Position numbers and translations under genes: made by a program
Part shown: positions 5,849-36,827 of the stretch, in pieces
How the letters are laid out: each line of letters starts with the position of its first letter
Numbering within the stretch: position 1 is the first letter of the stretch
The notes under the pieces: generated by a model
The model's input: only the letters and a program-made list of their open reading frames with translations
Databases searched by the model: none
Told to the model about the DNA's origin: nothing
NCBI GenBank assembly: GCA_013336225.1
Contig: JAAXUC010000002.1
Coordinates: 74,634 to 138,633 of the forward strand
From: Candidatus Moraniibacteriota bacterium
Lineage (GTDB): Bacteria; Patescibacteriota; Minisyncoccia; Moranbacterales; GWC2-37-73
Direction of reading: 5' to 3'
DNA length: 64,000 bases

Positions 5849-5956
5849 ATTTATGCAGTCTTGATTCCTTTGATTCCTGCCTTGTCCGTATACTTTTTCA
5901 TGAAATGGAGAATGAAAAAAGCTATGAATAGAGGGAAAAAGAATAAAAAGAAATAG
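4868..5956 (+). CDS. Secreted protein with C-terminal TM anchor and basic tail (NTGNVH-PRG family), tandem copy 1
   Basis: 362 aa with a signal peptide and a beta-rich body. The first 326 residues are identical to the next gene. C-terminal anchor IYAVLIPLIPALSVYFF followed by KKAMNRGKKNKKK. Confidence 0.7.
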   Translation: MRYNKKLTNPRMSFKKTIALIAITVLLSFGETTSAQTTATDLRLTSSPLPINLKVIPGTTVSANIKVKNDGISAENIRITLMKFKADSATGAPNLSERQAGDDYFDWVTFSEDKFVLPVNEWKTITATFNVPASASFGYYYAVVFTRAQENVTQSEKQTILVGGMATLVLLEAQVPNAKREIQVTDFSVDKSMFEFLPATFSIKLKNTGNVHLAPRGNIFISKSDQKDVAILEVNPNKGSILPDSPRTFEESWSDGFPYYIDKQADGKVVIDGNGKTEQELKWNFAEASKLRWGKYTAKMLLVYDDGKRDVPVEAEVSFWIMPWRVIIYAVLIPLIPALSVYFFMKWRMKKAMNRGKKNKKK

Positions 5957-7307: not shown

Positions 7308-8237
7308 TTGTTGTATATGAAAAAGAAATTAACATATTTAACTTTAATATTGGTTGGCGCATTATTTTTTTCAAAAAATGCCTTGGCTGATGATCAAAAT
7401 TTTTCCATCAGTCCTTTTTTTCAAGAAATTAATTTGGAAAAAGAGCAAGAGAGAACGGATTTTGTATTGGAAATTGCCAATAACACCGGAGCTGCTGCAA
7501 CCTTGAAATTGTCGGTGCTTGATTTTGGAGCGCTGGACGAATCTGGTGGGGTGGCTTTTTTGGGCAGCGCTGAAGATTTGAAAAACAAATATGCTCTAGC
7601 TTCTTGGGTCAGCTTGGAAAAAGATTCAGTTGTAATTAATCCTGGTGAAAAACAAAATGTCCGAGTGATGATTGAAAACAAAGATTCTCTTTCGCCGGGT
7701 GGACATTATGCTGCTGTGATGGCCAATATGGCAAAGGAAGATGATGGAACTGGCAGTGAGTCATCAATTGTTGCGCTTGATCCATCATTTGCCTCACTCA
7801 TCTTCGTGCGCAAAGTTGGCGGTGAAATCTATGGTTTGAATTTGAAAGATCAAGAAATTGAAAAGAATTTTTTGAGCTTGCCAAGCAATGTGAGATTGCG
7901 TTTTCAAAATACTGGTAATGTCCATGTCAGTCCGCGCGGAATCATCAAGCTCACCGATCCGTTGGGACGAGAAATTGCCACTGGAATCATCAATGGTGAA
8001 TCGGCCATAGTTTTGCCAGAAACATTTCGCAAATTCCCAACTGAGTTCAAGCAAGCAGCCGTGGCTTTCATGCCAGGGAAGTATGAGCTTTCGGTGGCAT
8101 ATCGCTTTGACGGAAAAGAAGATTTTGTGACTCAGCAGCAAGTTGTCTATTTTTTCCCAATTAAGATAATGCTCGCAAGTATTTTCATGCTTGTATTGGT
8201 AGCCTTTAGCTGGAGAAGGTTTAGGAGAAGAAGGTAA
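7308..8237 (+). CDS. Secreted protein with C-terminal TM anchor and RRRR tail (NTGNVH-PRG family), third paralog
   Basis: 309 aa with a signal peptide. The motif FQNTGNVHVSPRGII matches LKNTGNVHLAPRGNIF in the tandem duplicates. C-terminal TM helix followed by WRRFRRRR. An alternative start lies at 7317. Confidence 0.65.
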   Translation: MLYMKKKLTYLTLILVGALFFSKNALADDQNFSISPFFQEINLEKEQERTDFVLEIANNTGAAATLKLSVLDFGALDESGGVAFLGSAEDLKNKYALASWVSLEKDSVVINPGEKQNVRVMIENKDSLSPGGHYAAVMANMAKEDDGTGSESSIVALDPSFASLIFVRKVGGEIYGLNLKDQEIEKNFLSLPSNVRLRFQNTGNVHVSPRGIIKLTDPLGREIATGIINGESAIVLPETFRKFPTEFKQAAVAFMPGKYELSVAYRFDGKEDFVTQQQVVYFFPIKIMLASIFMLVLVAFSWRRFRRRR

Positions 8238-12231: not shown

Positions 12232-12242
12232 AAAATAAAAAT

Positions 12243-12971
12243 ATGAAAAAAATAATCATAGTTTCAATCGTGCTACTTTTGCCTCTTAGAGCATTTGCCA
12301 GTGAAAACTGGACTCTTAAAGAAAACAAAAACATGCTTTCTTTGGAAGGATCTTGCAAAGGGCAGGGCGTGAAAATAGAGCTATATCCAGCCGGCAAAGG
12401 CGAATCGGTCTATTCAGCTAATGCTGCTTGCAAGGATGGAAAATTTCAATTTTCAGATAATCTTTTGCAATGGAGCAATTTGAGTGAAGGGGAATACGAA
12501 GTTGTTTTAAATGAAAAAGTGAATGAGGTTAAAAAAATTGAGATCAAAAGACCAGTTGCAGTCATCGATGCCGTCGTTGAGCTTGAAGCGGAAAAAGTGA
12601 TTGAAGAAGAAGTTAAGAGCCCCGAAATACAATTTCTTGGCGCGTTTGTCACTTTGCAAAAAACAATTTTGGACATGCGAAATTGGCTTGCACAGACCCA
12701 GTATCCATCCTTTATGAAAATTAGCCTCAATTTTGCGCTGGATGGAGTTGATCTTGCAGTCGGAAAAGTTTCCAATTTGGTTTTGTCTGGAGAAAATTCC
12801 AAAAAAGAATCAATTGAAAGCCTGGAAAGCATAGCGCCAGTTGCAGAAGTTTCTGATTTGCAAATGACAGAAGAAAAGAATGTTTCTGAAGTTGTTGAGG
12901 CAGCGCAAGATGAACAAGTGATGCAGGAGGAAGATGTCGCTGAAAATGGTGCTGCTCTAACCACGCAGTAA
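12243..12971 (+). CDS. Secreted hypothetical protein with an acidic C-terminus
   Basis: 242 aa with a signal peptide. It starts 12 nt after the 988-aa gene, so it is probably co-transcribed. Confidence 0.5.
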   Translation: MKKIIIVSIVLLLPLRAFASENWTLKENKNMLSLEGSCKGQGVKIELYPAGKGESVYSANAACKDGKFQFSDNLLQWSNLSEGEYEVVLNEKVNEVKKIEIKRPVAVIDAVVELEAEKVIEEEVKSPEIQFLGAFVTLQKTILDMRNWLAQTQYPSFMKISLNFALDGVDLAVGKVSNLVLSGENSKKESIESLESIAPVAEVSDLQMTEEKNVSEVVEAAQDEQVMQEEDVAENGAALTTQ

Positions 12972-13014: not shown

Positions 13015-13050
13015 GAAAAGTCGCCCCTGTGATGGAGGGCGACTTTTCAT
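13015..13050 (+). terminator. Rho-independent terminator
   Basis: AAAAGTCGCCC-CTGTGATGGA-GGGCGACTTTTCATTTTC. Confidence 0.7.
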
Positions 13051-13072
13051 TTTCCGGATTGTTTGTTATAAT
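13045..13072 (+). promoter_or_regulatory. Candidate sigma70-type promoter of the pilin gene (extended -10)
   Basis: TTTTCA, 16-nt spacer, then TGTTATAAT (TGn + TATAAT) about 35 nt upstream of the ATG at 13108. Confidence 0.3.
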
Positions 13073-13107: not shown

Positions 13108-13575
13108 ATGAAAAATACAAAATCTGGTTTTACATTGGTTGAGCTTTTATTGGTAATCGGTATCATTGCCACTTTGGCGGTGGTTGTTTTTGTGGCGCTT
13201 GATCCAGCAAAAAGATTTGCTGATGCCCGCGACGCAAGAAGAACATCGGATGTGGAAACAATCTTAAGCGCAGTTCATCAATATGTTATTGACAGCAAAG
13301 GCTCTTTTCCTGCTGGTATTGATAATGCTGAAAGACAAATTGCAACAGCAACTGACACTTGTGGAGTTTCTGGGGGTGGATGTGGTGATGGAGGAGAAAC
13401 TGGTTGTGTTGACTTGAGCGGTCAGTTAGCAAAATATCTTAAAGAAATTCCATATGATCCAACTGCCGGAATCGGGCCAGATCATTCTCACTATACAATC
13501 GTGAAGGATGATAACGGAATTGTCACTGTGCGTGCTTGTGATGCGGAAGGTGGAGTGATTTCTGTTTCGCGGTAG
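13108..13575 (+). CDS. pilA: Type IV pilin (prepilin with class III signal peptide), candidate major pilin
   Basis: MKNTKSG then FTLVELLLVIGIIATLAVVVFVAL: a canonical G/F cleavage site, Glu at +5 and a hydrophobic N-terminal helix. 155 aa with a Cys-rich C-terminal region. It has its own promoter and terminator. Confidence 0.8.
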   Translation: MKNTKSGFTLVELLLVIGIIATLAVVVFVALDPAKRFADARDARRTSDVETILSAVHQYVIDSKGSFPAGIDNAERQIATATDTCGVSGGGCGDGGETGCVDLSGQLAKYLKEIPYDPTAGIGPDHSHYTIVKDDNGIVTVRACDAEGGVISVSR

Positions 13576-13663: not shown

Positions 13664-14599
13664 TTGGTGAAATTTAAAAAAATATGGTATTATGTAAATG
13701 AAGAGAAATGTAAAAAACAAAAAAAACAAAAAAATATGGGAAAAATATCAAAAATAACCGAATCAGGAGAATCAATTGAGAAATTTTCTCCAAATGAGCA
13801 GGTTGCAGCAGAGGCAAAGACGACAAAGAAGTCCATAGGTACAACTTCAGAGAAAAAAAACAGTTGGGGAAAGAAAATTGCTTCAGTGGGATTGCTTTTG
13901 GTGGTGCTTGGATTGGGAGCAACTTCATATTATTTTTATCATAAATATAAATCTGTGCCCTCAGTGGAAACAGATGAGATCATTATTAAGGTTGGTAAAT
14001 TGATGGAGCTGCCAAGCAATGAAATTCCAACCTTGGCCACCGTGACTGACAAAGAAAAAATGAAAGAACAGCCATTTTTTGCAAAGTCTGAAAATGGAGA
14101 CAAAGTTCTGATCTATACTAAAGCGCAAAAAGCCATTTTGTATCGTCCATCACTAAACAAGATTGTGGAAGTGATGCAGCTTTCAATCAGTAAACCGACA
14201 GATGCAAAAACTGTGCAAAATGTTGATCAAGCAATCCCGCAAGAACAAGCAGTTCAGGATCAGGCTCAAACAACTGCGCCAGCGCAAAATGCTGAAAATC
14301 AAGCGCCAGTTGTGGCTGCTGAGCAAACAAAATTGAAAGTCGCCATATATAATGGCAGTGGCATCAAGGGAAAGGCCGGCACTTTGGCTGATGAAATTGT
14401 GAAAATTGAGGGATTGGAAGTGACTGAAAAAACCAATGCAACAGGCGGCTATGACAGCACGTTGGTGGTTGATCTTGCTGGTGGCAATGAAGTGATGGCG
14501 CAAAAGATTGCCGATGCTCTTGGTGCTGCAGTCGGACAATTGCCGGAAGGAGAAATGAAACCAGCAGCTGATGTGTTAGTGATTGGAGGGAAAAATTAA
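13664..14599 (+). CDS. Membrane protein with a C-terminal LytR_C (LytR/CpsA/Psr C-terminal) domain
   Basis: The C-terminus KLKVAIYNGSGIKGKAGTLADEIV...GYDSTLVVDLAGGNEVMAQKIADALGA...ADVLVIGGKN fits the LytR_C consensus (hhV.NGtg..G.A......L...G..........t.I.......A..la..lG.....lvvvG.d). It has one TM helix and a Lys-rich N-terminus. An alternative start lies at 13736. Confidence 0.6.
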   Translation: MVKFKKIWYYVNEEKCKKQKKQKNMGKISKITESGESIEKFSPNEQVAAEAKTTKKSIGTTSEKKNSWGKKIASVGLLLVVLGLGATSYYFYHKYKSVPSVETDEIIIKVGKLMELPSNEIPTLATVTDKEKMKEQPFFAKSENGDKVLIYTKAQKAILYRPSLNKIVEVMQLSISKPTDAKTVQNVDQAIPQEQAVQDQAQTTAPAQNAENQAPVVAAEQTKLKVAIYNGSGIKGKAGTLADEIVKIEGLEVTEKTNATGGYDSTLVVDLAGGNEVMAQKIADALGAAVGQLPEGEMKPAADVLVIGGKN

Positions 14600-14618
14600 A
14601 TATAAATTTACAAATCAC

Positions 14619-15032
14619 ATGACTTTTACTTTCATTTGGGATGAAAAATATAGTGTAGGGGTGGCAGAAATTGATGAGCAGCACAAGAAGTTGGTGGCAA
14701 CTATTGCCAAATTAAACGAAGCTATTTCTAAGGCTAAATCCATTGAAAAAGATGTGAAGAGCGTGCTAACTGAACTGAAGCAATACGTGGAGGTTCATTT
14801 CAGCACGGAAGAGAAATATTTCAAGGAATTTAATTATGAATTTGCTGAACAACATATCTTGGAACACCGAGAGTTTGCTAAAAAAATTGAATCTTTTTAT
14901 GAAAAATATGCAGGAAATGAAGTTGAAATTTCATTTGAGTTGATTGATTTTTTGGAGGATTGGCTGCTGGATCACATGATGACCCAAGATCGAAAATATA
15001 TGCATTGCTTCGCTGAAAATGGCTTGAAATAA
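14619..15032 (+). CDS. Bacteriohemerythrin (hemerythrin-like metal-binding protein)
   Basis: WDEKYSVGVAEIDEQHKKL...HFSTEEKYF...H..EH..F...WLLDHMMTQDRKY carries the His/Glu diiron ligand pattern of the hemerythrin domain. The ORF track starts at a TTG (14583). The ATG at 14619 is more plausible. Confidence 0.7.
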   Translation: MTFTFIWDEKYSVGVAEIDEQHKKLVATIAKLNEAISKAKSIEKDVKSVLTELKQYVEVHFSTEEKYFKEFNYEFAEQHILEHREFAKKIESFYEKYAGNEVEISFELIDFLEDWLLDHMMTQDRKYMHCFAENGLK

Positions 15033-15053
15033 AAAATTAAATAAAATCTTCAA

Positions 15054-16607
15054 ATGAAAATTCGTACTAAAGTTTTCCTGATCGTGGTGGCCATTTTCGG
15101 ACTGCTTTTTTTTGGCATCTCGCAGATTTTCACAGCAGTTGAATCAGCCAACTTTGAAAGATTGGAAAAGCAAAATGCATTTAAGGATATGAACAGGGTT
15201 GAGAAGGCTATTGCAAATGAAAATTCCAAGTTGGCGGAAATGATTGCTAGTTGGTCACATTGGAATGATGCTTATGCTTTTATTCAAGACGGAAATCAGA
15301 CATTTATCGACACCAATCTTAGCGCTGAGATCATAACTCAGCTGCAACTCAACTTCATCGCGATTAAGAATGATGTTGGAGAAAGCTTATTTGAAAAATA
15401 TGTGAATAAAGAAGGAAATGAGATGCCATTTCCGCAGGCGATCAAGGATGTGCTAAATGACACCAGAATTTCTGATGCAGCTAAACGCCCAATCCAATTG
15501 AATTTTTCAGGCATAGTTGAAACTGCTGACGGTCCATATGTGATAGCTATTCAATCGGTGACTTCTAGTGATGGTGGCGCCTCACCCAAGGGCTTGATGG
15601 CTTTTGGTTACAAAGCGGATGAGGATTTCATGGCGGCTTTGTCTGAGGCAACTTTGTTGCAATTGGACAGTGCCCCTTTGACTGAAATTGAAAAAATTGG
15701 AGCGCTGCTTGCTTTGCAGAAAAATCTCTCCATCACTGAGCGCATTTCAATTCAAAAAACAGCAGAATATGATTCAATTAATGTGTTTATGCTAACAGAC
15801 GATATTTTTGGCGAACCCGGAAGAATTTTCAAGGCTCAGATAAAGCGAGATGTCTATCTGGCTGGTCTTGATAACATTGCCAGAATAAATTTATTCTTGG
15901 TGGGAGTCGCATTCCTTATTGTGATTATTGTGTTGAGCTTGTTTGAGTTTTTTGTGCTCAGAAAAATCGATAAACTCATGAGTGGTGTTCAGCGAGTCGG
16001 CTCTTTGGACTATGTGGATGAGCAGCTGCTTGTTTCTGGCAAAGATGAGTTTGCCAAATTGGGCTTGGAGATTAATAAGATGCTGGACGCCGTGGAAAAA
16101 ACTCGTTTGGAAAAAAAGGAGACAGAAAAACGTTTTTTAAATATTGCTGATAGTGCTCCGGTGATGATTTGGATTTCAGATGAAAAAAACAAGATCGTAT
16201 ATGTGAATACCACTTTGACTGATTTTTTGGGTAAATCAGAGAAGGAGCTGTTTGGAGATGCTTGGATCAGTGTCATTCACCCTGAGGATAAGGAAAAAGT
16301 CTTGCTTGAATATGCTGATGCGGCAGCAAAAAAACAGAAAATTTCACTCAAATATCGAGTTATGAATGCAAAGAGTGAATATCGCTGGATTTTGGTGGAG
16401 GCAATAACCAGAATCACCCCGAGAGGACTTTTCAAGGGTTATACTGGCACAGCCATTGATGTCACTCAATTTGAAGAGTCAGATCAAAGGAAAATAAAAT
16501 ATATTGAAGAAATTGAAAAAATGAATAGGCTCATGGTTTCAAGGGAACTTAAGATGGTTGAGCTCAAGAAACAATTGCGAGATTGTGAAGTGCAGGAAAA
16601 GATGTAA
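15054..16607 (+). CDS. Membrane sensor protein with extracytoplasmic domain and cytoplasmic PAS domain, no kinase domain
   Basis: 517 aa. The layout is TM, a ~250-aa periplasmic region, TM, then a PAS-like region (MIWISDEKNKIVYVNTTLTDFLGKSEKELFGDAWISVIHPEDKEKV...YRWILVEA) and a C-terminal coiled coil. No HisKA or HATPase motifs. Confidence 0.6.
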   Translation: MKIRTKVFLIVVAIFGLLFFGISQIFTAVESANFERLEKQNAFKDMNRVEKAIANENSKLAEMIASWSHWNDAYAFIQDGNQTFIDTNLSAEIITQLQLNFIAIKNDVGESLFEKYVNKEGNEMPFPQAIKDVLNDTRISDAAKRPIQLNFSGIVETADGPYVIAIQSVTSSDGGASPKGLMAFGYKADEDFMAALSEATLLQLDSAPLTEIEKIGALLALQKNLSITERISIQKTAEYDSINVFMLTDDIFGEPGRIFKAQIKRDVYLAGLDNIARINLFLVGVAFLIVIIVLSLFEFFVLRKIDKLMSGVQRVGSLDYVDEQLLVSGKDEFAKLGLEINKMLDAVEKTRLEKKETEKRFLNIADSAPVMIWISDEKNKIVYVNTTLTDFLGKSEKELFGDAWISVIHPEDKEKVLLEYADAAAKKQKISLKYRVMNAKSEYRWILVEAITRITPRGLFKGYTGTAIDVTQFEESDQRKIKYIEEIEKMNRLMVSRELKMVELKKQLRDCEVQEKM

Positions 16608-16629
16608 ATTGATGTTGTTTGGATAATTT

Positions 16630-19431
16630 TTGCTTGTGATGGTAATAAAATCTCTCAAAAATAAAATAACAATTTTCGTGCTGTCAGCCATTTTATTTTT
16701 TGGCTTTTTGGCTGTGGCTTGGGTGGCTGCTTATGGCAATGAATCTTTGGTCGCTCAAAAAAAGAGTGAAACCGTTCTTGCCTTGGTGAGCATGGCTGAT
16801 CATGTTGAGGAATGGATGGATTTGGAACGTTATTCAGTTGAACTTACTGCGCACAACATTGTCCTGGTTGATGCCTTGGAGCAAGGAGAAAATTTGCTGG
16901 AAAATAATAAGTTGAGAATTTTTCTGGAGGAGCAGAAAAGAAAGGTTTCAGCGAAAGACATTGTGGTTCTCGATATAAATGGGAATGTATTGACAGCTAC
17001 CGGTGGGATATATTTCGGTCATAATTTCGGTTATCGGAATTATTTCAAGGATGCGCTGGCAAACGATGTTGCCTCTGAAGTTGTGATTGGTGCAATCAGT
17101 AATGATTCAAACTTTGTTTTCTCTCATCGCGTGGTGAATCGCGAGGGGAAAGCTTTAGGTGTGGCACTGCTCATCACTAAAACTGAAACCGCTATCAAGT
17201 CATTGTTTGGTGAAATGCAAGATGCTGACCAGCACAAACATATGTTGGTGGATGACAATGGAATAGTAGTGGCTTCAAATGACAACGAGATGGCTTTGAA
17301 AAGCATTGGGCAATTGCCATATCAAACTTTGCAAGATATCAATGCGGATAAGCGCTACGGCGACAGAGAAATCCAGTCTTTGCGATATAATAATGTGCTT
17401 GATGCGATTAAGGAAAAAGCGGGAGTCAGTGTATATGATTTTTTTGATAATAATAATGGAAAACAGGAGTTGGTTGGAGTGGCGCCAGTCCATAAATATC
17501 CCTATTCCGTGGTGATGGAGATTCAAGAAGTCGATCTTATTTGGCAGATTGCCAGGGTTTATTATACGCTTGGATTGGCCGTTCTGATTTCTTGTCTTTT
17601 GGCGGCAGTGGTCATCTATTACATGCTTAACAAGTTTCTGTCGCCACTGAAAGAATTGCGCAGAGTGGCTGAAAAAATAAGTAAAAATGAACTTGATTGC
17701 GAACTTTTCTTGAAAACGGGTGATGAGCTTGAGGAACTTAGCACAGCTTTCAATGTGATGATCAAGGGCCTGATGAGGACTAAAGATGACATTGAGAAGA
17801 GAGTTGAATTGCAAACTAGTGACATCAGAAATAAGCAGCTTGCCTTGGAAAATCAGGAAAAAGCTGCCATGAATATTCTGGAAGATATCACGGGAGAGAA
17901 AGAGAAGTCTGAAAAAATGGCCATTGATCTGGAGAAATTCAAACTTGCCATTGAAAACACTAATGATCAGGTTGTAATCACGGACAAGGATGGGGTTATT
18001 GTTTATTCAAACCCTGCCATGACAAAAATTACGGGATATTCAATGGAAGAAGCTATTGGAAAAACGCCTGCGCTTTGGGGAGGACAAATGAGTGATCAAT
18101 ATTATGGGGCTTTTTGGAAAACTATTAAAGAAAAGAATGAGGAATATGAAGGTGAATTGTATAATAAACGTAAAAATGGTTCCACTTTCTTGGCACATAT
18201 TCATGTTGCTCCGATTCTTGGCGATGGCGAGGAGGTTAAGTTCTTCGTGGGAGTCGTGCGTGACATTTCCAAAGAACGTGAATCGCAGCTGCAACTCAAG
18301 AAGGATGCCGAAGACTTGAAATCGGCAAATAGTTTGATTGCAAGCCAAAAGGAACGAGCTGAAAATATTTTGGCTTATTTGCAGTCAATTGGTGATGGCG
18401 TGATTGCAACTGATCTTGAGGGCAAAATCATCTTTTTCAATGAGGCAGCTGAGAAATTGACTGGTGCCACAAATGAAGAGGCTGTTGGAAAAAAATCAAA
18501 CGAAATTGTTTTTATTGCCGAAGAAAAGAATTCAAAAGTGTTGCAAGATTTGATTGGCGACGCACTTGCTGGCGGACATGTTCGAAAAAAAGTAGGCGAA
18601 CATTACTTGATAAAATCCAAGGAAGACTTGATTATGGCAATATCTTTCAGGCTTTCATTTATTTTTGATAAAAACAATAAGAAGCAAGGTTGCATTCTCG
18701 TGATGCGCGACGTGAGTGAACAAAGAGAAATCGAAAAAACTAAAGATGATTTCCTCTCTGTTGCAGCTCATCAATTAAGAACGCCGCTCACAGGTGTGAG
18801 GTGGTCCTTGGAGATGCTTTTGGATGGAGATTTGGGCGAATTGCCAGAGGCCGCGAAAGAGGCTTTGGATCAAATTTCCAAAAACAATAAGCGCTTGATC
18901 TTGTTGGTGAATGATTTGTTGGATGTTTCCAGAATCAATATGGGCAAATCAAAGGAGGAGCCTATTCCAGTGGATGTTTCTAGTGCATTGCAAGAATCTA
19001 TCAATACCTTGCACAGCTTGGCTGAAGAAAGGGGAATTAATATTGTGTTTGAACAAAAGGCAAAAGAAATTCCGATGATCAATATTGGTCCAAAACATCT
19101 TTTTCAATCTTTTGAAAATCTTCTGTCTAATGCTATAAAATATAGCCCAAATGGTGGAGCCGTTAAAGTTTTATTGGATTTTAAAAAGAATAAAGTTGTT
19201 ATCAATGTTTCTGATAATGGCATTGGAATTCCGAAAGAAGATCAAGAAAAAATCTTTGGCAAGTTTTTTAGAGCTTCAAATGCAGCGCTCAAAGAAACAG
19301 AGGGTTCCGGATTGGGATTGAATGTGGTAAAATCATTTATAGAAGATTTCGGTGGGAATGTTTCTTTTGTGAGCAAGGAAGGCAAAGGAACAACGTTCAC
19401 AATCGAATTACCAACTGATTTTAAGTCGTAA
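16630..19431 (+). CDS. Sensor histidine kinase (Cache-like sensor, HAMP, PAS x2, HisKA, HATPase_c)
   Basis: 933 aa. The H-box is SVAAHQLRTPLTGVRW. N, G1 and G2 boxes are present (LSNAIKYSP, DNGIGIP, GSGLGLNVV). HAMP-like and PAS regions lie between two TM segments and the kinase core. Confidence 0.8.
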   Translation: MLVMVIKSLKNKITIFVLSAILFFGFLAVAWVAAYGNESLVAQKKSETVLALVSMADHVEEWMDLERYSVELTAHNIVLVDALEQGENLLENNKLRIFLEEQKRKVSAKDIVVLDINGNVLTATGGIYFGHNFGYRNYFKDALANDVASEVVIGAISNDSNFVFSHRVVNREGKALGVALLITKTETAIKSLFGEMQDADQHKHMLVDDNGIVVASNDNEMALKSIGQLPYQTLQDINADKRYGDREIQSLRYNNVLDAIKEKAGVSVYDFFDNNNGKQELVGVAPVHKYPYSVVMEIQEVDLIWQIARVYYTLGLAVLISCLLAAVVIYYMLNKFLSPLKELRRVAEKISKNELDCELFLKTGDELEELSTAFNVMIKGLMRTKDDIEKRVELQTSDIRNKQLALENQEKAAMNILEDITGEKEKSEKMAIDLEKFKLAIENTNDQVVITDKDGVIVYSNPAMTKITGYSMEEAIGKTPALWGGQMSDQYYGAFWKTIKEKNEEYEGELYNKRKNGSTFLAHIHVAPILGDGEEVKFFVGVVRDISKERESQLQLKKDAEDLKSANSLIASQKERAENILAYLQSIGDGVIATDLEGKIIFFNEAAEKLTGATNEEAVGKKSNEIVFIAEEKNSKVLQDLIGDALAGGHVRKKVGEHYLIKSKEDLIMAISFRLSFIFDKNNKKQGCILVMRDVSEQREIEKTKDDFLSVAAHQLRTPLTGVRWSLEMLLDGDLGELPEAAKEALDQISKNNKRLILLVNDLLDVSRINMGKSKEEPIPVDVSSALQESINTLHSLAEERGINIVFEQKAKEIPMINIGPKHLFQSFENLLSNAIKYSPNGGAVKVLLDFKKNKVVINVSDNGIGIPKEDQEKIFGKFFRASNAALKETEGSGLGLNVVKSFIEDFGGNVSFVSKEGKGTTFTIELPTDFKS

Positions 19432-19448
19432 TAACTGTTGATACTATT

Positions 19449-19838
19449 ATGGAGAACAAATGCGAAGGACGAAAAGTGCTGGTAGCTGAAGACGATGTTT
19501 TTCTGTCTAATGTCTATAAGAGTAAATTGACCAAGGAGGGGTTTGAGGTTTTTATCGCCAAAAACGGGGAAGAAGCTGTTGAAATGGCCACAAAAAATAA
19601 ACCAGAGATCATTTTGCTGGATCTTATCATGCCGATTAAGAATGGTTTTGAAACATTGAAAGAATTGAAAGAATCAGCTGAAACTAAAGATATTAAGGTG
19701 GTTATCCTTTCAAATTTGAGTCAGGAAGAGGATGAGAAGAAGTTGTTGGCCATGGGTGCTATCGGTTATGTAGTAAAGGCCAATGTTTCTTTTCGCGAAA
19801 TCATTGAATTGGTCAAGCAGCATCTTGGTATTGAATAA
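19449..19838 (+). CDS. Response regulator, receiver domain only (CheY-like)
   Basis: 129 aa: KVLVAEDD...ILLDLIMP...K. No output domain. Confidence 0.8.
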   Translation: MENKCEGRKVLVAEDDVFLSNVYKSKLTKEGFEVFIAKNGEEAVEMATKNKPEIILLDLIMPIKNGFETLKELKESAETKDIKVVILSNLSQEEDEKKLLAMGAIGYVVKANVSFREIIELVKQHLGIE

Positions 19839-19852
19839 TTTAGGGTAAAAAT

Positions 19853-21556
19853 ATGAAATATTTGGCTTTCACAAATCAAGATATTGAAAAAATTCTTGGT
19901 GAGTCTGGCGTGGTTGATGAGGCAAAGGTTGCCAAAGCAGTGGCTAGTGCCAAGCTGGAAAATAGCTCACTTGCAGATGTCGCTGTCAATCAGGGGCTTG
20001 TTACTAATGAAGAATTGTCCAGATTGGTGGCGGATGCACTGGATATGCCATTTATGTCACTTGCTGGAAAACTTCCAACCAAAGAGACTTTGGCACTTAT
20101 TCCTGAATTAGTGGCCCGCAAGAAGCGCGTGGTGCCTTTTAGGTTGGATGAAAAGGGATTACATGTTGCAATGGCGGATCCCACTGATCTTGAAACACTC
20201 AATTTCATTGCTCGCAGGGAGGGCATGCATGCCATTGCCTATGCCACCACTGATCAAGATATTGATACTGTCCTGGAGCTGTATGGCGAAGGGTTGAACA
20301 ATTTGTTGGAAATAAAATCTGAAAAGTCTGGAAAAGTTGCTGGCAGCGAGGATGATTCTTCCATTATTCAGATTGTGAAAAAAGTTATTGTGGAGGCGTA
20401 TCGCAATCGCGCCTCTGATATTCATATTGAACCGCGCGAAGAAAGCGACAGTGTGATCAGATTTCGTATTGATGGAATTTTGCATGACGTCACCTTGATT
20501 CCAATGGAATTGCATGCCCAAATCATTTCGCGCATCAAAGTGATGGCAAAGTTGCGAACTGATGAACATCAAACTCCACAGGATGGAAAAATTTCTTTCA
20601 AGCTGGAGGATGACAATTCTGAAATGGATTTGCGTGTTTCAATCGTGCCGGTGACAGAAGGAGAAAAAGCAGTGCTGCGTCTTTTGGCTGAACGTTCTCG
20701 TCAATTTTCATTGGCTGGCATTGGCCTTAGTGAAAATAATCTGAAAAAAATTCAAGAGGCTTATGAAAAACCATATGGCATGGTTTTGTCGACTGGACCG
20801 ACTGGTTGTGGAAAAACCACAACATTGTATGCCATTTTGAAACTTTTGAATAAACGGCACGTGAACATCATGACCATTGAAGATCCGGTGGAATATGACA
20901 TTGATGGAGTGAGCCAAATTCAAGTCAATCCCAAAGCAAAGCTTACTTTTGCCTCAGGTTTGCGCAGCATTTTGCGTCAAGATCCGAACATCATTTTGGT
21001 GGGAGAAATTCGTGATCAAGAAACGGCTGGCATTGCAATCAATTTGGCGCTTACGGGACATCTGGTTTTATCAACCTTGCATACTAATGACAGCGCCACG
21101 GCCATTCCACGTTTCATTGATTTGGAAGTGGAACCATTTCTGATTGCTTCGACTGTCAGTGTCATCATCGCGCAACGTTTGGTGCGTAAAATCCATGATG
21201 GCTGCAAAGTGAGCGAGGAATTTAAAGCGGCTGACATCGCCAAGAAAATTGGTTGGGAGCTTACTGAAAAAATGTTTGGTGTCAAAAAATCCAATCCGGA
21301 TGGTACTGTGCGACTGTATCAAGGCAAAGGTTGTGAAGCTTGTCAGGGAACAGGTTTTCAGGGCAGAATCGGAATTTTTGAAGTGATGGTCATGGATGAT
21401 CAAATGCGACAAGCAATTTCTCAAAACAAAGATGCGGGCTTTTTGGAGGAGTTGGCGAAAAAGTCAGGCATGATTGGTCTCTTGGAAGATGGCTTGGGAA
21501 AAGTTAACATGGGAATTACAACTATTGATGAGATTTTGGGTGCCACGAAATTATAG
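19853..21556 (+). CDS. pilB: Type IV pilus assembly ATPase PilB/GspE family (locus 1)
   Basis: 567 aa with an N-terminal GspII_E-like domain. Walker A is GPTGCGKTT. The ATPase core begins ASDIHIEP and a tetracysteine motif follows (C...C...CEACQGTGFQGR). Confidence 0.85.
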   Translation: MKYLAFTNQDIEKILGESGVVDEAKVAKAVASAKLENSSLADVAVNQGLVTNEELSRLVADALDMPFMSLAGKLPTKETLALIPELVARKKRVVPFRLDEKGLHVAMADPTDLETLNFIARREGMHAIAYATTDQDIDTVLELYGEGLNNLLEIKSEKSGKVAGSEDDSSIIQIVKKVIVEAYRNRASDIHIEPREESDSVIRFRIDGILHDVTLIPMELHAQIISRIKVMAKLRTDEHQTPQDGKISFKLEDDNSEMDLRVSIVPVTEGEKAVLRLLAERSRQFSLAGIGLSENNLKKIQEAYEKPYGMVLSTGPTGCGKTTTLYAILKLLNKRHVNIMTIEDPVEYDIDGVSQIQVNPKAKLTFASGLRSILRQDPNIILVGEIRDQETAGIAINLALTGHLVLSTLHTNDSATAIPRFIDLEVEPFLIASTVSVIIAQRLVRKIHDGCKVSEEFKAADIAKKIGWELTEKMFGVKKSNPDGTVRLYQGKGCEACQGTGFQGRIGIFEVMVMDDQMRQAISQNKDAGFLEELAKKSGMIGLLEDGLGKVNMGITTIDEILGATKL

Positions 21557-21593
21557 ATATATATAAAAAACAAGAGCTATGCTAGATTAGGTG

Positions 21594-21725
21594 CTTTTGA
21601 TTTCTTATTTCCTTTTTTAGGAACATTTTTGACTGAAATTCATAGTCAAAAAACTTACTCGCTCTCGCTGCGTAGGTCCTAAAAAGAAAATAAGCAAATC
21701 AAAAGGTGAGTTAATTTTTGAAATC
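21594..21725 (+). repeat. Family B structured repeat, copy 1 (intergenic pilB-pilC)
   Basis: Outer arms TTTGATTTCTTATTTCCTTTTTTAGGAAC and GTAGGTCCTAAAAAGAAAATAAGCAAATCAAAA are complementary. The inner hairpin is TTTTTGACTGAAATTCATAGTCAAAAA. The core is CTCGCTCTCGCTGC. Homologous to 24344-24474 and 30273-30416. Confidence 0.7.
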
Positions 21726-21730
21726 ATATA

Positions 21731-22816
21731 TTGCCCATAATCAAAAAAATAAATATGAAAATATTCTCAGGACTCTCATACTTAGAAAAACTTTTTTTCA
21801 TCAAGCATCTTTCGATGTTTTTGAAATCAGGCATTCCGCTGGATGAAGCACTTGAAACATTGGCTGAAGGTGAGCAGAAAAGTTCTATTAGCAAAGTCGC
21901 GTTGTCAGTCAGGGCTCAGATTCAAAATGGGCAGCCACTGCATAAGGCTTTTGCCAAGGAATCCAGTTCATTTGATCTATTTTTCATTTCCATGGTGGAA
22001 ATTGGAGAAGTGTCTGGCACGCTGGAAAAAAGTTTGGATTTTTTGGTGGCCAAAATCACCAGAGAGGCGACGCTGCGAAAAAAAATTCAAGCCATGCTAT
22101 ATTATCCAGCTGTGGTGGTTGGCGCTGCAATCGTGATTGGAGGTTTTGTGAGTTTTTTCGTGTTGCCAAAATTGGGGGACATGTTCAAATCGTTTGATGT
22201 GCAATTGCCTCTTATAACCAGGATATTATTGGCTTTTGCTAATTGGGTGAAAGATTATGGTGCAATTGCGATGATATCTTTCATTGCGTTGCTGATTGTT
22301 TTTCGTGTGCTTATCGCTGCTTGGACGCGTCTGCGATTTTTTTGGCATAAAATCAAATTCAACCTGCCCATTACAGGCAAAGTCATCTTGGGCTCAGAGC
22401 TTTCGGCATTTTTTCGAAACATTGGAATCATGCTTTCCAGTGGACTTTCTTTGGAATATGCACTTGCCACTGAATCTAAAATTTCAGACAACCTTGTCAT
22501 GAAAAAAGTGGCAGCTGATTTGCACATGGCGGTGACTCAGGGGCGGCGCATGGGGGAAGAGTTGAAAAGTGAAAACAACACGATTTTCCCTCAGCTTTGC
22601 GCAAGAATGATTACGGTGGGTGAGATGTCTGGAAAACTGGAAGAATCATGCATGTATTTGGCTGATTATTTTGAAGATGAAACTGAGGTGCAAGCAAAAA
22701 ACATGGCTGCAATTTTGGAGCCAGCCTTGCTTTTAGGCATCGGAGCGATCGTGGCTTTCATCGCAATGGCTGTTATTTTGCCTATCTATTCTTTGACTGG
22801 TTCCATTCGTCGCTAA
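21731..22816 (+). CDS. pilC: Type IV pilus platform protein PilC/GspF family (locus 1)
   Basis: 361 aa with two GspF-like repeats and 3-4 TM helices. It sits immediately downstream of pilB. Confidence 0.75.
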   Translation: MPIIKKINMKIFSGLSYLEKLFFIKHLSMFLKSGIPLDEALETLAEGEQKSSISKVALSVRAQIQNGQPLHKAFAKESSSFDLFFISMVEIGEVSGTLEKSLDFLVAKITREATLRKKIQAMLYYPAVVVGAAIVIGGFVSFFVLPKLGDMFKSFDVQLPLITRILLAFANWVKDYGAIAMISFIALLIVFRVLIAAWTRLRFFWHKIKFNLPITGKVILGSELSAFFRNIGIMLSSGLSLEYALATESKISDNLVMKKVAADLHMAVTQGRRMGEELKSENNTIFPQLCARMITVGEMSGKLEESCMYLADYFEDETEVQAKNMAAILEPALLLGIGAIVAFIAMAVILPIYSLTGSIRR

Positions 22817-22834
22817 GATGTTGAAAAAAGTTAA

Positions 22835-23290
22835 ATGTCAAAAGTTAAATGTCAAATATTGCATAAGCAGGGATTTACTTTAATCGAATTACTTTTGGTG
22901 ATTGCGCTTGTTTTGATCGTGAGTGTTCCAACCGCTGCTTTTTCCACGCATTTCATTTATCAAATGTCTGTGCGCGATGCCTCTGAAGGTTTGGTTGGAA
23001 TGCTGCAAGAAGCGCAAGCACTTTCAATGCTGGGCAAAGAGAATTCAGCTTGGGGCGTGAAAAAGCAATCAGGAAAATTGATTCTTTTTCGGGGAGAAGA
23101 TTTTTCAAATCGCGATCAAGCATTTGATCAAGCGTTGAGCATAAATTCGCATGTGAATATGATAGGTTTTGATGAAATGAGTTTCTCGCGCTATGGAGGA
23201 TTTCCTTTGCAGCCAACTGGCTCAATTGTTGTGGCTTGGGGGAATGTGAACGAAATATTTAAATTAAATTCGGAAGGAGTTTTTGAATAA
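22835..23290 (+). CDS. Prepilin-type minor pilin (pseudopilin)
   Basis: ...HKQG then FTLIELLLVIALVLIV: a class III signal with G/F cleavage and Glu+5. Confidence 0.7.
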   Translation: MSKVKCQILHKQGFTLIELLLVIALVLIVSVPTAAFSTHFIYQMSVRDASEGLVGMLQEAQALSMLGKENSAWGVKKQSGKLILFRGEDFSNRDQAFDQALSINSHVNMIGFDEMSFSRYGGFPLQPTGSIVVAWGNVNEIFKLNSEGVFE

Positions 23291-23298
23291 TTATCAGC

Positions 23299-23769
23299 AT
23301 GAAAAAAGGAATATCACAAAAGCGAGGTTTTTCGGTGCTAGAAGTCATTTTAGCAGTGGCACTTTTTTCCATTTTTTCCACTACTGCTGTTTCCTTTGTG
23401 CTTGAATCGATGCAAGTGCAAGCTCAAGCCAGTCAATTTGAAAATGCCTCACTGTATGCCGAGGATGGCTTGGAAAAAATAAGAGCAGTGCGAGATGTTT
23501 CATTTGATGAATTGGTGGATGGGTCTGAATATGGATTGAACTTCAATGCTGGTAAGTGGGAATTGAAAAATGGCAGTGATGAATCTGAAATATACAAAAG
23601 AATCATCACAATCGAAACAGCCAAAAGAGACGGTGAGCTGAATATTGTTTCGGAAGACGGAGCAGATGATTTGAATATGAAAAAAATAATAGTAGATGTT
23701 TCCTGGAAAAATGCCACGGGCGAAAATGTTTCAACTCAGCTAGTGACTTATCTTTCTCGTTGGAAGTAA
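23299..23769 (+). CDS. Prepilin-type minor pilin (pseudopilin)
   Basis: MKKGISQKRG then FSVLEVILAVALFSIF: a class III signal. Confidence 0.7.
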   Translation: MKKGISQKRGFSVLEVILAVALFSIFSTTAVSFVLESMQVQAQASQFENASLYAEDGLEKIRAVRDVSFDELVDGSEYGLNFNAGKWELKNGSDESEIYKRIITIETAKRDGELNIVSEDGADDLNMKKIIVDVSWKNATGENVSTQLVTYLSRWK

Positions 23770-24293
23770 AAAATATGACAAATAAAACAAAAAAGGGCTT
23801 TACCTTCATTGAAACTATATTATATATAGCAATTTCGTCAGTTGTGGTTGGCGTGCTTTTTGCCTATGGTTGGAATATGGTCAGCGCGCGCACTAAAGCT
23901 GCCACCATGCGAGACACTGCTGCAAATGCCAGGCTCATCATGTTGCGCCTCAACAATGAAATTCGCATGGCAACTGATATTGATAAAAATAATTCTGTTT
24001 TTGAGGGCGAAAATGGAAAAATATCGCTGACCACTCCTCAAGGAAAGATCATGATCGAATCAATTGGAGATAGGATTTCCATTGCCAGAGGGGAAAATTC
24101 CCCGCAATTTCTTTCCGGAGAAAATGTGCGCGTGAGAAATTTTCAATTATCCAAACAAGAAAATGACGCTGGGAAAGTTCAATATGTGGGATTTTCTTTC
24201 ACAGTGGAAGCCTATTATCCTGAAGCGCTTAACAGTTATGAATACAATTATTCATTGCCAATTAATTCGGGAGCGGAGGTGAGAAGTCAGTAA
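23760..24293 (+). CDS. Prepilin-type minor pilin (pseudopilin)
   Basis: ...NKTKKG then FTFIETILYIAISSVVVG: a class III signal. The start is probably the ATG at 23775. Confidence 0.7.
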   Translation: MEVKNMTNKTKKGFTFIETILYIAISSVVVGVLFAYGWNMVSARTKAATMRDTAANARLIMLRLNNEIRMATDIDKNNSVFEGENGKISLTTPQGKIMIESIGDRISIARGENSPQFLSGENVRVRNFQLSKQENDAGKVQYVGFSFTVEAYYPEALNSYEYNYSLPINSGAEVRSQ

Positions 24294-24343
24294 AATTAAA
24301 TTATGTATGCATATAAAGGATGCATTGTTCCGTCATTAAGTAT

Positions 24344-24474
24344 TTTGCTTTGCTTATTTCCTTTTTTGACACATTTTTGACTGAAAATCATAGTCAAAAA
24401 ACTGATTCGCTCTCGCTGCATAGGGTCTAAAAAGAAAATAAGCAAAGCAAAATGGTGTGGATTAATTTTTGAAA
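24344..24474 (+). repeat. Family B structured repeat, copy 2 (between minor-pilin genes)
   Basis: Same arm/hairpin/core arrangement as 21594-21725, with scattered substitutions. Confidence 0.7.
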
Positions 24475-24488
24475 GCGCATGTTGCAAT

Positions 24489-24905
24489 ATGATCATATAT
24501 GAATCAGAAAATAAAAAAGGTTACGTGGTTATTTCAACAGTCTTGATCTTGCTTTTTGTTACCTTGGGAATCGCTGCCACGCTTTCATTTCTTTCAATTG
24601 GAAGCTCAAAAGTTTCGCAGTCTTTTGGCGAAGGGCGGCAAGCGTTGTTTCTTTCTGAATCTTGCCTGGAGGAAGGATTGTTGCGACTCAAAACTGACGT
24701 TGCCTATGCTGGCGGAACAATCAATTTTCCTGAAGAAAAAGTGTGTCATCTCAACATCACGAATGATGGCCAAATATATACGATGCAAGCCTACATGCTA
24801 GGGCAAAAAAAATATGTACGTTCTCTTGAGGTACATGTGAATATTGTTGATGGCATTTTGCAAATAATAAGTTGGGAAGAGAAACCTTTTGTGATAGAAT
24901 ATTAA
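24489..24905 (+). CDS. PilX-like minor pilin (PilX_N-type hydrophobic N-terminus)
   Basis: KKGYVVISTVLILLFVTLGIAATLSFLSIG...RQALFLSESCLEEGLLRL resembles the PilX N-terminal domain pattern. 138 aa. Confidence 0.5.
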   Translation: MIIYESENKKGYVVISTVLILLFVTLGIAATLSFLSIGSSKVSQSFGEGRQALFLSESCLEEGLLRLKTDVAYAGGTINFPEEKVCHLNITNDGQIYTMQAYMLGQKKYVRSLEVHVNIVDGILQIISWEEKPFVIEY

Positions 24906-24906
24906 T

Positions 24907-26268
24907 ATGTTTTTTCGCCATCACATCACTACCATCTTTGTAACTCGCGGCAAGATCACTTCCGCTGTTTTTTCGACTGGTGGAAAAAACATCAAAGCAG
25001 CGGCTGTGTATGATTGGAACGAGGAAAATCTCGCCCTTGTTCTTGCTGACATTGCAGCGCATGGTCCAAATGTGGTCAGGGTTGTTTTTGGAGAAGAATT
25101 CTCCTATGTTACCACACTTGATTCTTCCAAGGGTGATAGAGGAAGCATTTTGGAAAAGGCGCGCGAAGCGATTCCTGAGGAGCTGGGGGATAATTGGGAT
25201 TTTCGCAAAGAAAAGGATCAGCTCTTTTCCTCACAAGTGATTGCCGTTCAAGCTCAGCTGCTGAACATGTTTATTGAAAAATTGAAAGAAGCCGGCTTGC
25301 GCGTGGAAGCCATGGAGCCTCAATCAGTGGCAATTGCTCGCTTGCTTCCAAAAACTGGCTTGTTTCTTTTTGCCGTGAATGACGAGAAGTTTTTGATGGG
25401 GGCAGTGAGAAATGGCACAGTCATTGGAACTTTTGTGGCTGCAAAAAGCGATGACGCTTCAATGTTGGCGGGCTTTGTTGCTTCAGTGCGAAAAAAATGC
25501 AAAGAAGAACTTAGCACAGTCTTGATCGATAAATATATGCAAGTTGGGGACGATGTTTTTTTGGCCAATGGCTTGCAGCCTGAAATCATGGAGCTTGACC
25601 CCCTGTATTCAATTGCAGTAAAGAAACATCTTGTTGGTAGTGATTCACATGTCTTGAATATTTTGCCAGTTGATAAGAAAATTCTCAAGAAGCAGGCAAC
25701 AGAAAAATATTTATCAAAAATTGAAAACACTGCAACAGTGCAAGCTCCTGCTCGCTTTTCATTGCGCGAAAAAATATTGGCAATCTTTTTTGTTATAGGT
25801 CTTGTCGCAAGCGGATTCGTGTTGCTTAAAAAAATGCCACCCAAGAAACAAAGCATCTCATTGATTGCAACAGAAAAAAAGCAAGAAGTTGCCATGCAAA
25901 ATGATGTTATTCAAAATCCTTCAGCAACTGTGGAACAGCAAGCTTCTGCCGAAAAGGTTGTGCAAGATGTCGTTTCAACAAAAAGGCCTCAAGATTTGCA
26001 AATTTTGATTCTAAACGGCGGCGCAGCTGTTGGTAGCGCAGCAAAAGTTAAGGATATTTTGGTAGCCAAGAAGTATGTGAATATTGACGCTCAAAATGCG
26101 GAAAATAAGGATAATGTTGGAGTTGTCCTGTATTATCAAGCACAAAATGTGGAAAATATGGCTCAAATAAAAGCAGATTTACAAAAAACATATCCTAAAA
26201 TAGTAGCCAAGGAGGCGTCCTCAGCTGAGGAAAAATCTTCGGAAATCGTCATTATATTGGGGAAATAG
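24907..26268 (+). CDS. PilM-like actin-fold domain, TM helix, C-terminal LytR_C domain fusion protein
   Basis: The N-terminal ~280 aa resemble PilM (…SQVIAVQAQLLNMFIEKLKEAGLRVEAMEPQSVAIARLL…). A TM helix ILAIFFVIGLVASGFVLL follows. The C-terminus LQILILNGGAAVGSAAKVKDIL...VGVVLYY...IVIILGK matches LytR_C. Confidence 0.55.
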   Translation: MFFRHHITTIFVTRGKITSAVFSTGGKNIKAAAVYDWNEENLALVLADIAAHGPNVVRVVFGEEFSYVTTLDSSKGDRGSILEKAREAIPEELGDNWDFRKEKDQLFSSQVIAVQAQLLNMFIEKLKEAGLRVEAMEPQSVAIARLLPKTGLFLFAVNDEKFLMGAVRNGTVIGTFVAAKSDDASMLAGFVASVRKKCKEELSTVLIDKYMQVGDDVFLANGLQPEIMELDPLYSIAVKKHLVGSDSHVLNILPVDKKILKKQATEKYLSKIENTATVQAPARFSLREKILAIFFVIGLVASGFVLLKKMPPKKQSISLIATEKKQEVAMQNDVIQNPSATVEQQASAEKVVQDVVSTKRPQDLQILILNGGAAVGSAAKVKDILVAKKYVNIDAQNAENKDNVGVVLYYQAQNVENMAQIKADLQKTYPKIVAKEASSAEEKSSEIVIILGK

Positions 26269-26456: not shown

Positions 26457-26507
26457 AAAACAAAAACAGAGAGGACTTTTTGAGTCCTCTCTGTTTTTGT
26501 TTTATTT
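26457..26507 (+). terminator. Strong Rho-independent terminator after tRNA-Pro
   Basis: AAAACAAAAACAGAGAGGACT-TTTTG-AGTCCTCTCTGTTTTTGTTTTATTTT. Confidence 0.75.
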
Positions 26508-34391: not shown

Positions 34392-34457
34392 AAATATTAA
34401 TAAATGTTATAATTGCTCAAGTGCAGACAGGATTTGCATTTGTTGCATCAAATTAGT

Positions 34458-34835: not shown

Positions 34836-34945
34836 AGCCATAAAGCCTCTAGTCAACCAAGCAGGCAGACAAAAAAATACAAAAACACAAAAAACCCCAG
34901 TTAAATTTTCGTCAAAAGCGAATTTAACGGGATAAATAAAAATAA

Positions 34946-36694: not shown

Positions 36695-36700
36695 GCAAAA

Positions 36701-36827
36701 ATTTCATTTTTGAAATCCAAAATCCAAAGGTCAAATAAATGACAAAAGGACTTAATGATAGAAGATTTGGATTTCGTGCTTGAGATTTTATTTGGATTTA
36801 AGATTTTGTCATTGAGATTTTTTAAAA
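36701..36827 (+). promoter_or_regulatory. Family E AT-rich upstream element, copy 1 (directly 5' of pilC2)
   Basis: Shares ...CAAAGGTCAAATAAATGACAAAAGG...GATTTTATTTGGATTTAAGATTTTGTCATTGAGATTTTTTAAAA with 59881-60010. It contains an AATGACAAAA/TTTTGTCATT inverted repeat and a TTGTCA -35-like hexamer. It ends 4 nt before the ATG. Confidence 0.45.

Follow-up and report, generated by a model that had tools for sequence, protein, structure and literature searches.

The last gene of a type IV pilus locus in Candidatus Moraniibacteriota bacterium, an ultrasmall member of the Patescibacteria, encodes a 453-amino-acid (aa) protein that is very probably the membrane platform (alignment) subunit of a distinct Patescibacteria pilus subtype. 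The gene closes locus 1, the first of two pilus loci in a 64,000-nucleotide stretch of contig JAAXUC010000002.1 (the window; positions are counted from its first letter). Its product, called the fusion below, joins on one chain a reduced PilM-like domain, a single transmembrane (TM) helix, and a LytR_C domain. Type IV pili are central to host attachment, movement, and probably DNA uptake in Patescibacteria, and the pilus machines of these single-membrane cells have been annotated only by analogy with PilM, PilN, and PilO. If the reading is right, a large, conserved pilus subtype of these bacteria uses a single, unannotated platform protein, and a family model for its N-terminal domain would improve the annotation of hundreds of metagenomic loci. 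Taken whole, that is, the platform role together with the role proposed below for LytR_C, the reading is one we hold with moderate confidence.

Locus 1 runs from a pilin gene through genes for a 311-aa membrane protein, a hemerythrin, a CHASE4-PAS protein, a dCache-HAMP-PAS histidine kinase, and a response regulator to PilB, PilC, the minor pilins, a PilX-like protein, and the fusion. Its main features, with the comparison set from locus 2, are as follows.

13108 to 13575, forward strand: major pilin of locus 1, with a prepilin N-methylation motif (N_methyl).
13664 to 14599, forward strand: 311-aa membrane protein with a TTG start; TM helix, small conserved beta domain, disordered linker, LytR_C.
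19853 to 21556, forward strand: PilB1, extension ATPase (MshEN and T2SSE domains).
21731 to 22816, forward strand: PilC1, platform protein (two T2SSF domains).
22835 to 23290, 23299 to 23769, and 23760 to 24293, forward strand: three minor pilins, their order kept directly upstream of the fusion gene.
24489 to 24905, forward strand: PilX-like protein, the fourth pilin-like gene, directly 5' of the fusion gene.
24907 to 26268, forward strand: 453-aa fusion protein, last gene of locus 1; PilM/GspL-like domain, TM helix, linker, LytR_C.
41913 to 44258, forward strand: PilM, PilN, and PilO/GspM-like genes of locus 2.

The fusion gene begins 2 bp past the PilX-like gene and is followed by tRNA-Pro and then by a strong terminator-like hairpin at 26457-26503. 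A Pfam scan gave no match to PilM, PilN, or PilO in locus 1, which has PilB, PilC, and three to four minor pilins. Locus 2 (33405-44258), besides a kinase, a regulator, PilB, PilC, and pilins of its own, encodes classical PilM (PF11104, 183.8 bits), PilN (PF05137), and a PilO/GspM-like protein. The initial annotation of this DNA, made from sequence alone, was therefore right that the three platform genes belong to locus 2 only. Neither PilT nor PilD was found among the window open reading frames (ORFs) scanned.

Does the arrangement recur elsewhere? Related loci (L numbers) were retrieved by a narrow, pattern-based search that yielded 5 genome loci and 14 metagenome loci, with two duplicates (L014 = L004 and L023 = L006). 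Wherever the surroundings of the fusion gene were legible, it is preceded by four pilin-like genes matching those of the window, with PilB and PilC upstream of them, giving the order PilB, PilC, four pilin-like genes (mp151-mp156-mp177-PilX), fusion, and usually the major pilin. The operon is complete in L001, L002, L004, L005, and L007 and partial in L003, L015 to L020, and L025, and the gene lists of the relatives P0005, P0008, and P0009 follow the same order. A major pilin homologue stands immediately 3' of the fusion gene in L004, L005, L007, L015, L016, L018, and L019. In all, the operon context is kept in at least 13 loci from divergent lineages (22 to 45% identity). By sequence identity, PilB and PilC there are orthologous to PilB1 and PilC1 and not to their locus-2 counterparts: PilB is 50 to 70% identical to PilB1 versus 40 to 46% to PilB2, and PilC is 41 to 61% identical to PilC1 versus 30 to 33% to PilC2. 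Homologues of the locus-2 PilM, PilN, and PilO were absent from every fusion locus read, GspM and secretin from locus 1 and the related loci, and GspC from locus 1 in the Pfam scan. This is a conserved pilus subtype, and since its loci keep a PilB1/PilC1-type operon without PilM, PilN, or PilO, the fusion is the only candidate there for the PilM/PilN role. The initial annotation had the fusion replace PilM, PilN, and PilO together. Because it sits in a pilus operon without separate genes for these proteins across at least 13 loci, the PilM-PilN part of that claim is upheld by context, and nothing shows the PilO part.

The titles of records carrying the operon, a handful of named records on which the taxonomic breadth of the family is based, read Moranbacteria, Roizmanbacteria, Saccharibacteria, "Patescibacteria group," and, in two cases, Gammaproteobacteria. 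These last two, L005 and L007 (CAZYIC010000020.1 and CAYJRY010000014.1), are titled "uncultured Gammaproteobacteria bacterium" yet carry a Patescibacteria-type operon, comprising the fusion, the pilin, and a PilB that shares about 50% identity with PilB1, and are probably mis-binned or mislabelled. By L003, some metagenome-assembled genomes labelled Saccharibacteria seem to have the fusion type.

At NCBI the 453-aa protein is named "LytR C-terminal domain-containing protein," i.e., after LytR_C alone, and neither Pfam nor NCBIfam has a model covering its N-terminal domain (N-domain). Its parts, all on the forward strand, are these.

24907 to 25626, forward strand (residues 1-240): reduced actin-like (ASKHA) domain without a 2B subdomain, from the AlphaFold2 (AF2) model, Foldseek, and profiles.
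25621 to 25671, forward strand (residues 239-255): conserved motif K-KHLVGSDSHVLNILPV, from family column counts.
25762 to 25830, forward strand (residues 286-308): single TM helix, from the AF2 helix and a hydrophobicity scan.
25831 to 25995, forward strand (residues 309-363): disordered extracytoplasmic linker rich in Pro and Thr, with a predicted local distance difference test (pLDDT) score below 50.
25996 to 26265, forward strand (residues 364-453): LytR_C, from PF13399 and a profile match to Mycobacterium tuberculosis Rv0431/VirR (2m5y).

The AF2 model was built from an 11-sequence alignment and has a mean pLDDT of 69.8, with the N-domain mostly at 80 to 95. It gives residues 1-240 two RNase-H-like beta-beta-beta-alpha-beta-alpha-beta-alpha halves with a 1C/SHS2-like insert; the second half of this domain of about 240 aa is modeled as the bare unit, lacking the 2B insert. 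Residues 310-361 are disordered, and residues 364-453 form a beta-alpha-beta-beta-alpha-beta-(alpha)-beta domain. Across the family, linkers measure 42 aa at the median, and P, T, S, A, Q, or E make up 58% of their residues.

What is the N-domain? A Foldseek comparison against the PDB ranks the cytoplasmic domain of EpsL/GspL first (1yf5, E 1.2e-9, TM-score on the target 0.63; 4pht, E 5.7e-9, 0.64). Structures of PilM (5eoy, E 7.3e-9, 0.36; 5eou, E 1.4e-8, 0.41; 3jc8_Ma, E 9.4e-8, 0.45) and FtsA (1e4g, E 7.4e-8, 0.39) are also matched, and generic sugar kinases rank below all of these. The sequence searches point to PilM. An exhaustive hidden Markov model (HMM) search with an N-domain-plus-TM profile, counted as cluster representatives at 50% identity, returned 499 family members at E of 1e-3 or better and 354 at 1e-10 or better. 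A profile built from 150 of the 499 matches Pseudomonas aeruginosa PilM at E 2e-4 (profile 39-158 against PilM 63-183) and Thermus thermophilus PilM at E 0.14, and hhalign aligns it with the locus-2 PilM over 135 columns (probability 93.8%, E 1.8e-7). Four of 100 relatives match PF11104 (PilM_2) at E of 1e-3 or better; the best-scoring relative is P0207 (E 4.5e-5, 23 bits, below the gathering score of 27 bits), and T2SSL is not among the relatives' Pfam matches. A smaller, seven-sequence profile had no PDB match and reached only 1.6% probability in hhalign. Given the profile matches, the hhalign alignment, and the P0207 match, the N-domain reads as a genuine but reduced PilM homologue. On the window protein itself, PF11104 has no match at E of 1 or better. 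Of the two HMM matches expected in the initial annotation, that to PF13399 was thus found and that to PF11104 was not, the PilM likeness having come through structure and the family profile.

The domain had also been called an ATPase, a label that does not survive. The family alignment has no conserved Asp or Gly at the positions of the phosphate motifs DxG (beta1-beta2) and DxGxxT, and the locus-2 PilM keeps its phosphate motif (VVDIGDRRT). As judged from alignment and model, the N-domain lacks both ATP-binding motifs and 2B and is GspL-like in size and shape.

This likeness raises the alternative that locus 1 encodes a pseudopilus system resembling type II secretion, with the 453-aa protein as a true GspL orthologue. 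GspL (PulL, EpsL) is the best structural match of the protein and has the same overall plan: a single chain in which a nucleotide-free, actin-like cytoplasmic domain (three subdomains, about 240 aa) is followed by one TM helix and an ectodomain. The locus-1 pilin also shows weak N-terminal similarity to GspG/GspH, and T2SSL/GspL (PF05134) gives a match to the fusion. However, that match covers residues 108-145 only (E 0.0069) and scores 16.2 bits against a gathering score of 25.5; the family profile finds PilM, not GspL, in the PDB sequence search; and the relatives' Pfam matches are to PilM_2, not T2SSL. Moreover, the ectodomain is LytR_C where GspL has the ferredoxin-like GspL_C, no GspM, GspC, or secretin partner accompanies it, and the host is a Patescibacterium with a single membrane. 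Orthology to GspL is accordingly very unlikely. Since its sequence affinity is to PilM rather than GspL, the protein is probably an independent fusion of the PilM+PilN type, separate from GspL, which the field itself regards as a PilM+PilN fusion (PMC10191384). A likely second, independent PilM-PilN fusion would bear on the evolution of type IV filament platforms in single-membrane cells.

A second comparison is with PilM and PilN of type IVa pili (5eou of P. aeruginosa, 2ych of T. thermophilus, and locus 2). The N-domain is homologous to PilM over 1A/1C and the start of 2A, with an IPxxL...D motif and an EAxEPxSxALAR helix in common; the operon is likewise one of PilB, PilC, and minor pilins; and, as in PilN, the TM helix has an LN[LI]LP-like motif ahead of it. 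Unlike that pair, the fusion would carry both functions on one chain, has neither 2B nor ATP-binding motifs, has LytR_C or nothing in place of the PilN periplasmic domain, and comes without PilO. The initial annotation could assign the architecture to no characterized type IV pilus system. Our search likewise found no paper or curated family describing a PilM-like/TM/LytR_C protein; the basic one-chain PilM+PilN plan, however, is already known from GspL/PulL. New are the LytR_C ectodomain, the single-membrane Patescibacteria setting without GspM or secretin, and the affinity to PilM over GspL.

Just after the actin-like domain comes the most conserved stretch of the family, with the consensus KxDIxGKDExVLN[LI]. 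Its columns are G in 130 of 148 sequences, D in 132 of 149, L in 138 of 149, and N in 130 of 150. The window version, GSDSHVLNILPVD, contains LNILP, resembling the INLLP found at PilN N termini; the locus-2 PilN begins MKIYLDLLPKE. On this sequence resemblance, the PilM-binding peptide of PilN may have been retained in cis.

The initial annotation reported two LytR_C domains in locus 1, and both hold: PF13399 scores 28.7 bits in the 311-aa protein (residues 224-298) and 30.0 bits in the 453-aa protein (residues 364-453), against a curated cut-off of 22.2 bits. Searches of the window ORFs with Pfam and family-specific HMMs found LytR_C in these two proteins only. Also confirmed is the plan assigned to the 453-aa protein of a PilM-like half, a TM helix, and LytR_C. 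The LytR_C of the fusion family matches VirR (2m5y) in a profile comparison at E 1.6e-8, and a further LytR_C profile does so at E 1.4e-3. With the model of the 311-aa protein, made for its 287-aa form (pLDDT 81 overall and 97 over LytR_C), Foldseek finds the VirR C-terminal domain (2m5y, E 1.8e-5) and an orthologue of Rv2700/Cei (6q10, E 5e-3). No PilN, PilO, GspL, or GspM structure is among its matches; the remainder are weak (E of 0.17 or more) and of unrelated folds. A diverged PilN/PilO ferredoxin-like domain is thereby ruled out. Because the structural matches are to VirR/Cei only, LytR_C is, by the model, a real domain replacement. The two window domains are not recent paralogues either, as BLASTP gives no alignment between them.

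LytR_C is best known from VirR/Cei and from the LytR-CpsA-Psr (LCP) glycopolymer transferases, in which it is a C-terminal accessory domain. Could it mark cell-wall glycopolymer functions unrelated to pili, its place in locus 1 being coincidental? Something of the kind probably holds for the 311-aa protein. The LCP catalytic domain (PF03816) has no match at E of 1 or better in either protein, however, and neither is a member of the transferases. For the fusion, synteny already contradicts the idea: in at least 13 loci, at 22 to 45% identity, the gene has kept its position after the PilX-like gene and before the major pilin, and its N-domain is, as argued above, a PilM homologue. As a general account, coincidence is extremely improbable.

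How essential is the domain to the fusion? PF13399 is found in 92 of 100 representatives of at least 330 aa. A family HMM finds LytR_C in 98 of 157 sequences; the rest are fragments or stop a few residues past the TM helix, and no alternative ectodomain or PilN-like domain was seen among the 157. The short form, ending after the TM helix, makes up about one third of the family and includes close relatives of the window protein (P0003, P0005, P0006, P0008, and P0009, at 43 to 48% identity). Since about a third of the family does without it, LytR_C is an accessory domain and cannot be an essential PilN/PilO replacement. In a different, shorter variant, the part ahead of the TM helix spans only about 200 aa, corresponding roughly to the 1A/1C half of the actin fold, and LytR_C follows the helix (P0207, P0236, P0240, P0245 to P0247, and P0260).

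What, then, might LytR_C contribute? Solo LytR_C proteins of M. tuberculosis influence how peptidoglycan is remodelled and how permeable the envelope is; through LytR_C, VirR associates with itself and binds LCP proteins (PMC11832169). A LysM+LytR_C protein in the related locus L012 is 36% identical to the TM-linker-LytR_C part of the fusion, an instance of this LytR_C subtype alongside peptidoglycan-binding modules. From these two lines of evidence, and by analogy, we infer a wall-proximal docking and/or oligomerisation module. That the LytR_C of the fusion is an accessory module that docks to the wall and/or self-associates is offered tentatively, as possible rather than probable. No relevant paper linking LytR_C with pili or Patescibacteria was found. 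The fusion would place a domain shared by VirR, Cei, and LCP enzymes at the base of a wall-crossing machine, a testable handle on what LytR_C binds.

The proposed mechanism is as follows. One chain would cover PilM plus the N-terminal and TM part of PilN. If the analogy with the GspL-GspE and PilM-PilB pairs holds, the reduced, nucleotide-free cytoplasmic domain would hold the PilB1 ATPase, and also PilC1, at the membrane. The GKDExVLN[LI] segment (LNILP in the window) may stand in, within the same chain, for INLLP, the PilN peptide bound by PilM. On the outer side, LytR_C would sit at the end of a flexible linker, about 40 residues long, where PilN, PilO, and GspL have a ferredoxin-like domain, and LytR_C might anchor the base of the pilus to the wall in these single-membrane cells, LytR_C-LytR_C binding being known only for mycobacterial VirR/LCP. 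A bolder version, in which a ring of LytR_C domains, from the fusion alone or with the 311-aa protein, forms a new pilus basal collar fixed to the wall in place of the PilN/PilO cage, seems unlikely to us. If true, the GspL plan would have been reinvented independently, and LytR_C would gain its first concrete functional context.

Several points weigh against the reading of the fusion as a wall-docked platform subunit. (i) The window protein falls below every Pfam threshold for PilM_2 and T2SSL. (ii) Its AF2 model is of moderate quality only, given the score and the small alignment noted above. (iii) The resemblance between LNILP and INLLP extends over three to five residues. (iv) An essential role for LytR_C is made less likely by its absence from a third of the family. 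(v) No PilO-like partner was found. (vi) Wall docking by LytR_C is conjecture.

The 311-aa protein, held in the initial annotation to have been recruited as a pilus component, appears to belong elsewhere. NCBI starts the gene at M25, the ATG at 13736, giving 287 aa (P0012), and this form is probable. The protein comprises a TM helix (13865-13951), a beta domain (14030-14179), a disordered linker, and LytR_C (14333-14596); in the numbering of the 287-aa model, the TM helix spans residues 44-72 and LytR_C residues 200-287. Its family numbers more than 1,035 clusters in a word-indexed search, much larger than that of the fusion. Its hallmarks are the TM helix and a highly conserved beta domain (about 50 aa), after which a linker and LytR_C usually come. 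The protein is a "solo LytR_C" envelope protein like VirR (Rv0431) and Cei (Rv2700), which have an N-terminal TM helix and an extracytoplasmic LytR_C but no LCP catalytic domain and which provide the only solved structures matching it (2m5y and 6q10). Unlike them, the family has the extra beta domain after the TM helix and an association with giant surface proteins. The relevant neighbours in the window and in other contexts of the family are these.

Window, 9265 to 12971, forward strand: secreted G/A/T-rich 988-aa protein and 242-aa protein, a conserved pair that accompanies the 311-aa family at loci lacking pilus genes.
L008: a close relative, in which the window arrangement is repeated next to the pilus operon.
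L009: 311-family gene directly after the gene for a 1503-aa protein; no type IV pilus genes.
L010: 311-family gene directly after the gene for a 2094-aa protein; no type IV pilus genes.
L011: 311-family gene beside a divergent 777-aa gene, which follows that for a 1320-aa protein; no type IV pilus genes.
L012: homologue of the 988-aa protein (46% identical over 483 aa), homologue of the 242-aa protein, 311-family gene, LysM/LytR_C gene, and rpoB.
L013: homologue of the 988-aa protein, a beta-lactamase (bla), homologue of the 242-aa protein, and 311-family gene.

Five of the eight contexts have no pilus genes but do have homologues of the 988-aa and 242-aa proteins or other very large proteins. 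Conversely, an HMM of the beta domain finds no family member in 10 of the 12 fusion loci with readable neighbours, the only one besides the window being L002. No 311-like gene occurs in the P0005 and P0009 loci, and the P0008 locus has, after the pilin, a 325-aa gene whose identity could not be read. In the window itself, a G+C-rich inverted repeat (hairpin) with a 13-bp stem at 13015-13048 and a promoter-like site at 13044-13072 lie between the 988/242 pair and the pilin, and the repeat is likely a transcription-unit boundary. An 88-bp gap separates the pilin gene from the 311-aa gene; no terminator was detected between them, so they may be co-transcribed locally. Weighing these contexts, we assign the 311-aa gene to a "large surface protein" module that, in this lineage, borders the pilus locus. 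The case for its recruitment into that locus is weak because the family is found mainly beside homologues of the 988-aa and 242-aa proteins where pilus genes are absent, and a pilus-linked role is doubtful. In the mechanism proposed above, the 311-aa protein would be tied primarily to the surface module, with co-transcription at the pilus locus a possibility here.

Could the two LytR_C proteins nonetheless pair, the fusion standing for PilM+PilN and the 311-aa protein for PilO, in an extracytoplasmic collar that replaces the PilN/PilO heterodimer? Both genes share a locus in the window and in L008, with no terminator after the pilin, and LytR_C domains bind one another in M. tuberculosis (PMC11832169). 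In L002 (6449-8476), a 311-family gene (194 aa) lies two genes after the fusion (324 aa), and both lack LytR_C, which looks like co-loss and could mean that the two domains are functionally coupled. These pilus-locus occurrences in the window, L008, and L002, and the missing terminator, also count against the separation of the 311-aa protein from the pilus argued above. Set against the pairing are the 10 of 12 fusion loci without a family member, the far larger size of the 311 family with five of its eight contexts free of pilus genes, and the lack of BLASTP-detectable similarity between the window domains; the apparent co-loss is, moreover, a single case. The pairing is thus improbable, and the surface-module assignment is preferred for the 311-aa protein. 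A related idea, that LytR_C is supplied in trans where the fusion lacks it, was rejected for L002, whose nearby 311-like gene is also without the domain.

The 988-aa secreted protein, the 242-aa protein, and the TM/beta-domain/LytR_C family form a conserved three-gene module in other Patescibacteria contigs (L012 and L013). Neither Pfam nor NCBIfam has a match for the first two. The module may be a surface-layer or giant-adhesin module with an envelope anchor. Further upstream in the window are tandem duplicate genes for secreted proteins (4868-5956 and 5963-7096, 93% identical) and a distant relative (7308-8237), none of them with a Pfam match.

Three observations concern the wider pilus loci. 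A CHASE4-PAS protein, a (d)Cache-HAMP-PAS histidine kinase, and at least one response regulator precede this pilus subtype in the window (14583-19838), in L001, L005, L007, and L008, and in the loci of P0005, P0008, and P0009; in the window, a hemerythrin is added, and the combination hints at redox- or O2/NO-responsive control of piliation. The second minor pilin, 156 aa in the window (23299-23769), is enlarged to 488 to 877 aa in L004 (4932-6722), L005 (7317-9062), L007 (6261-8894), and L003 (89-1555), which suggests grafted tip domains. In locus 2, a 458-aa modular pilin (38131-39507) has CarboxypepD_reg/SpaA-like prealbumin-fold modules grafted after the N-methylation motif and is likely an adhesive pilin.

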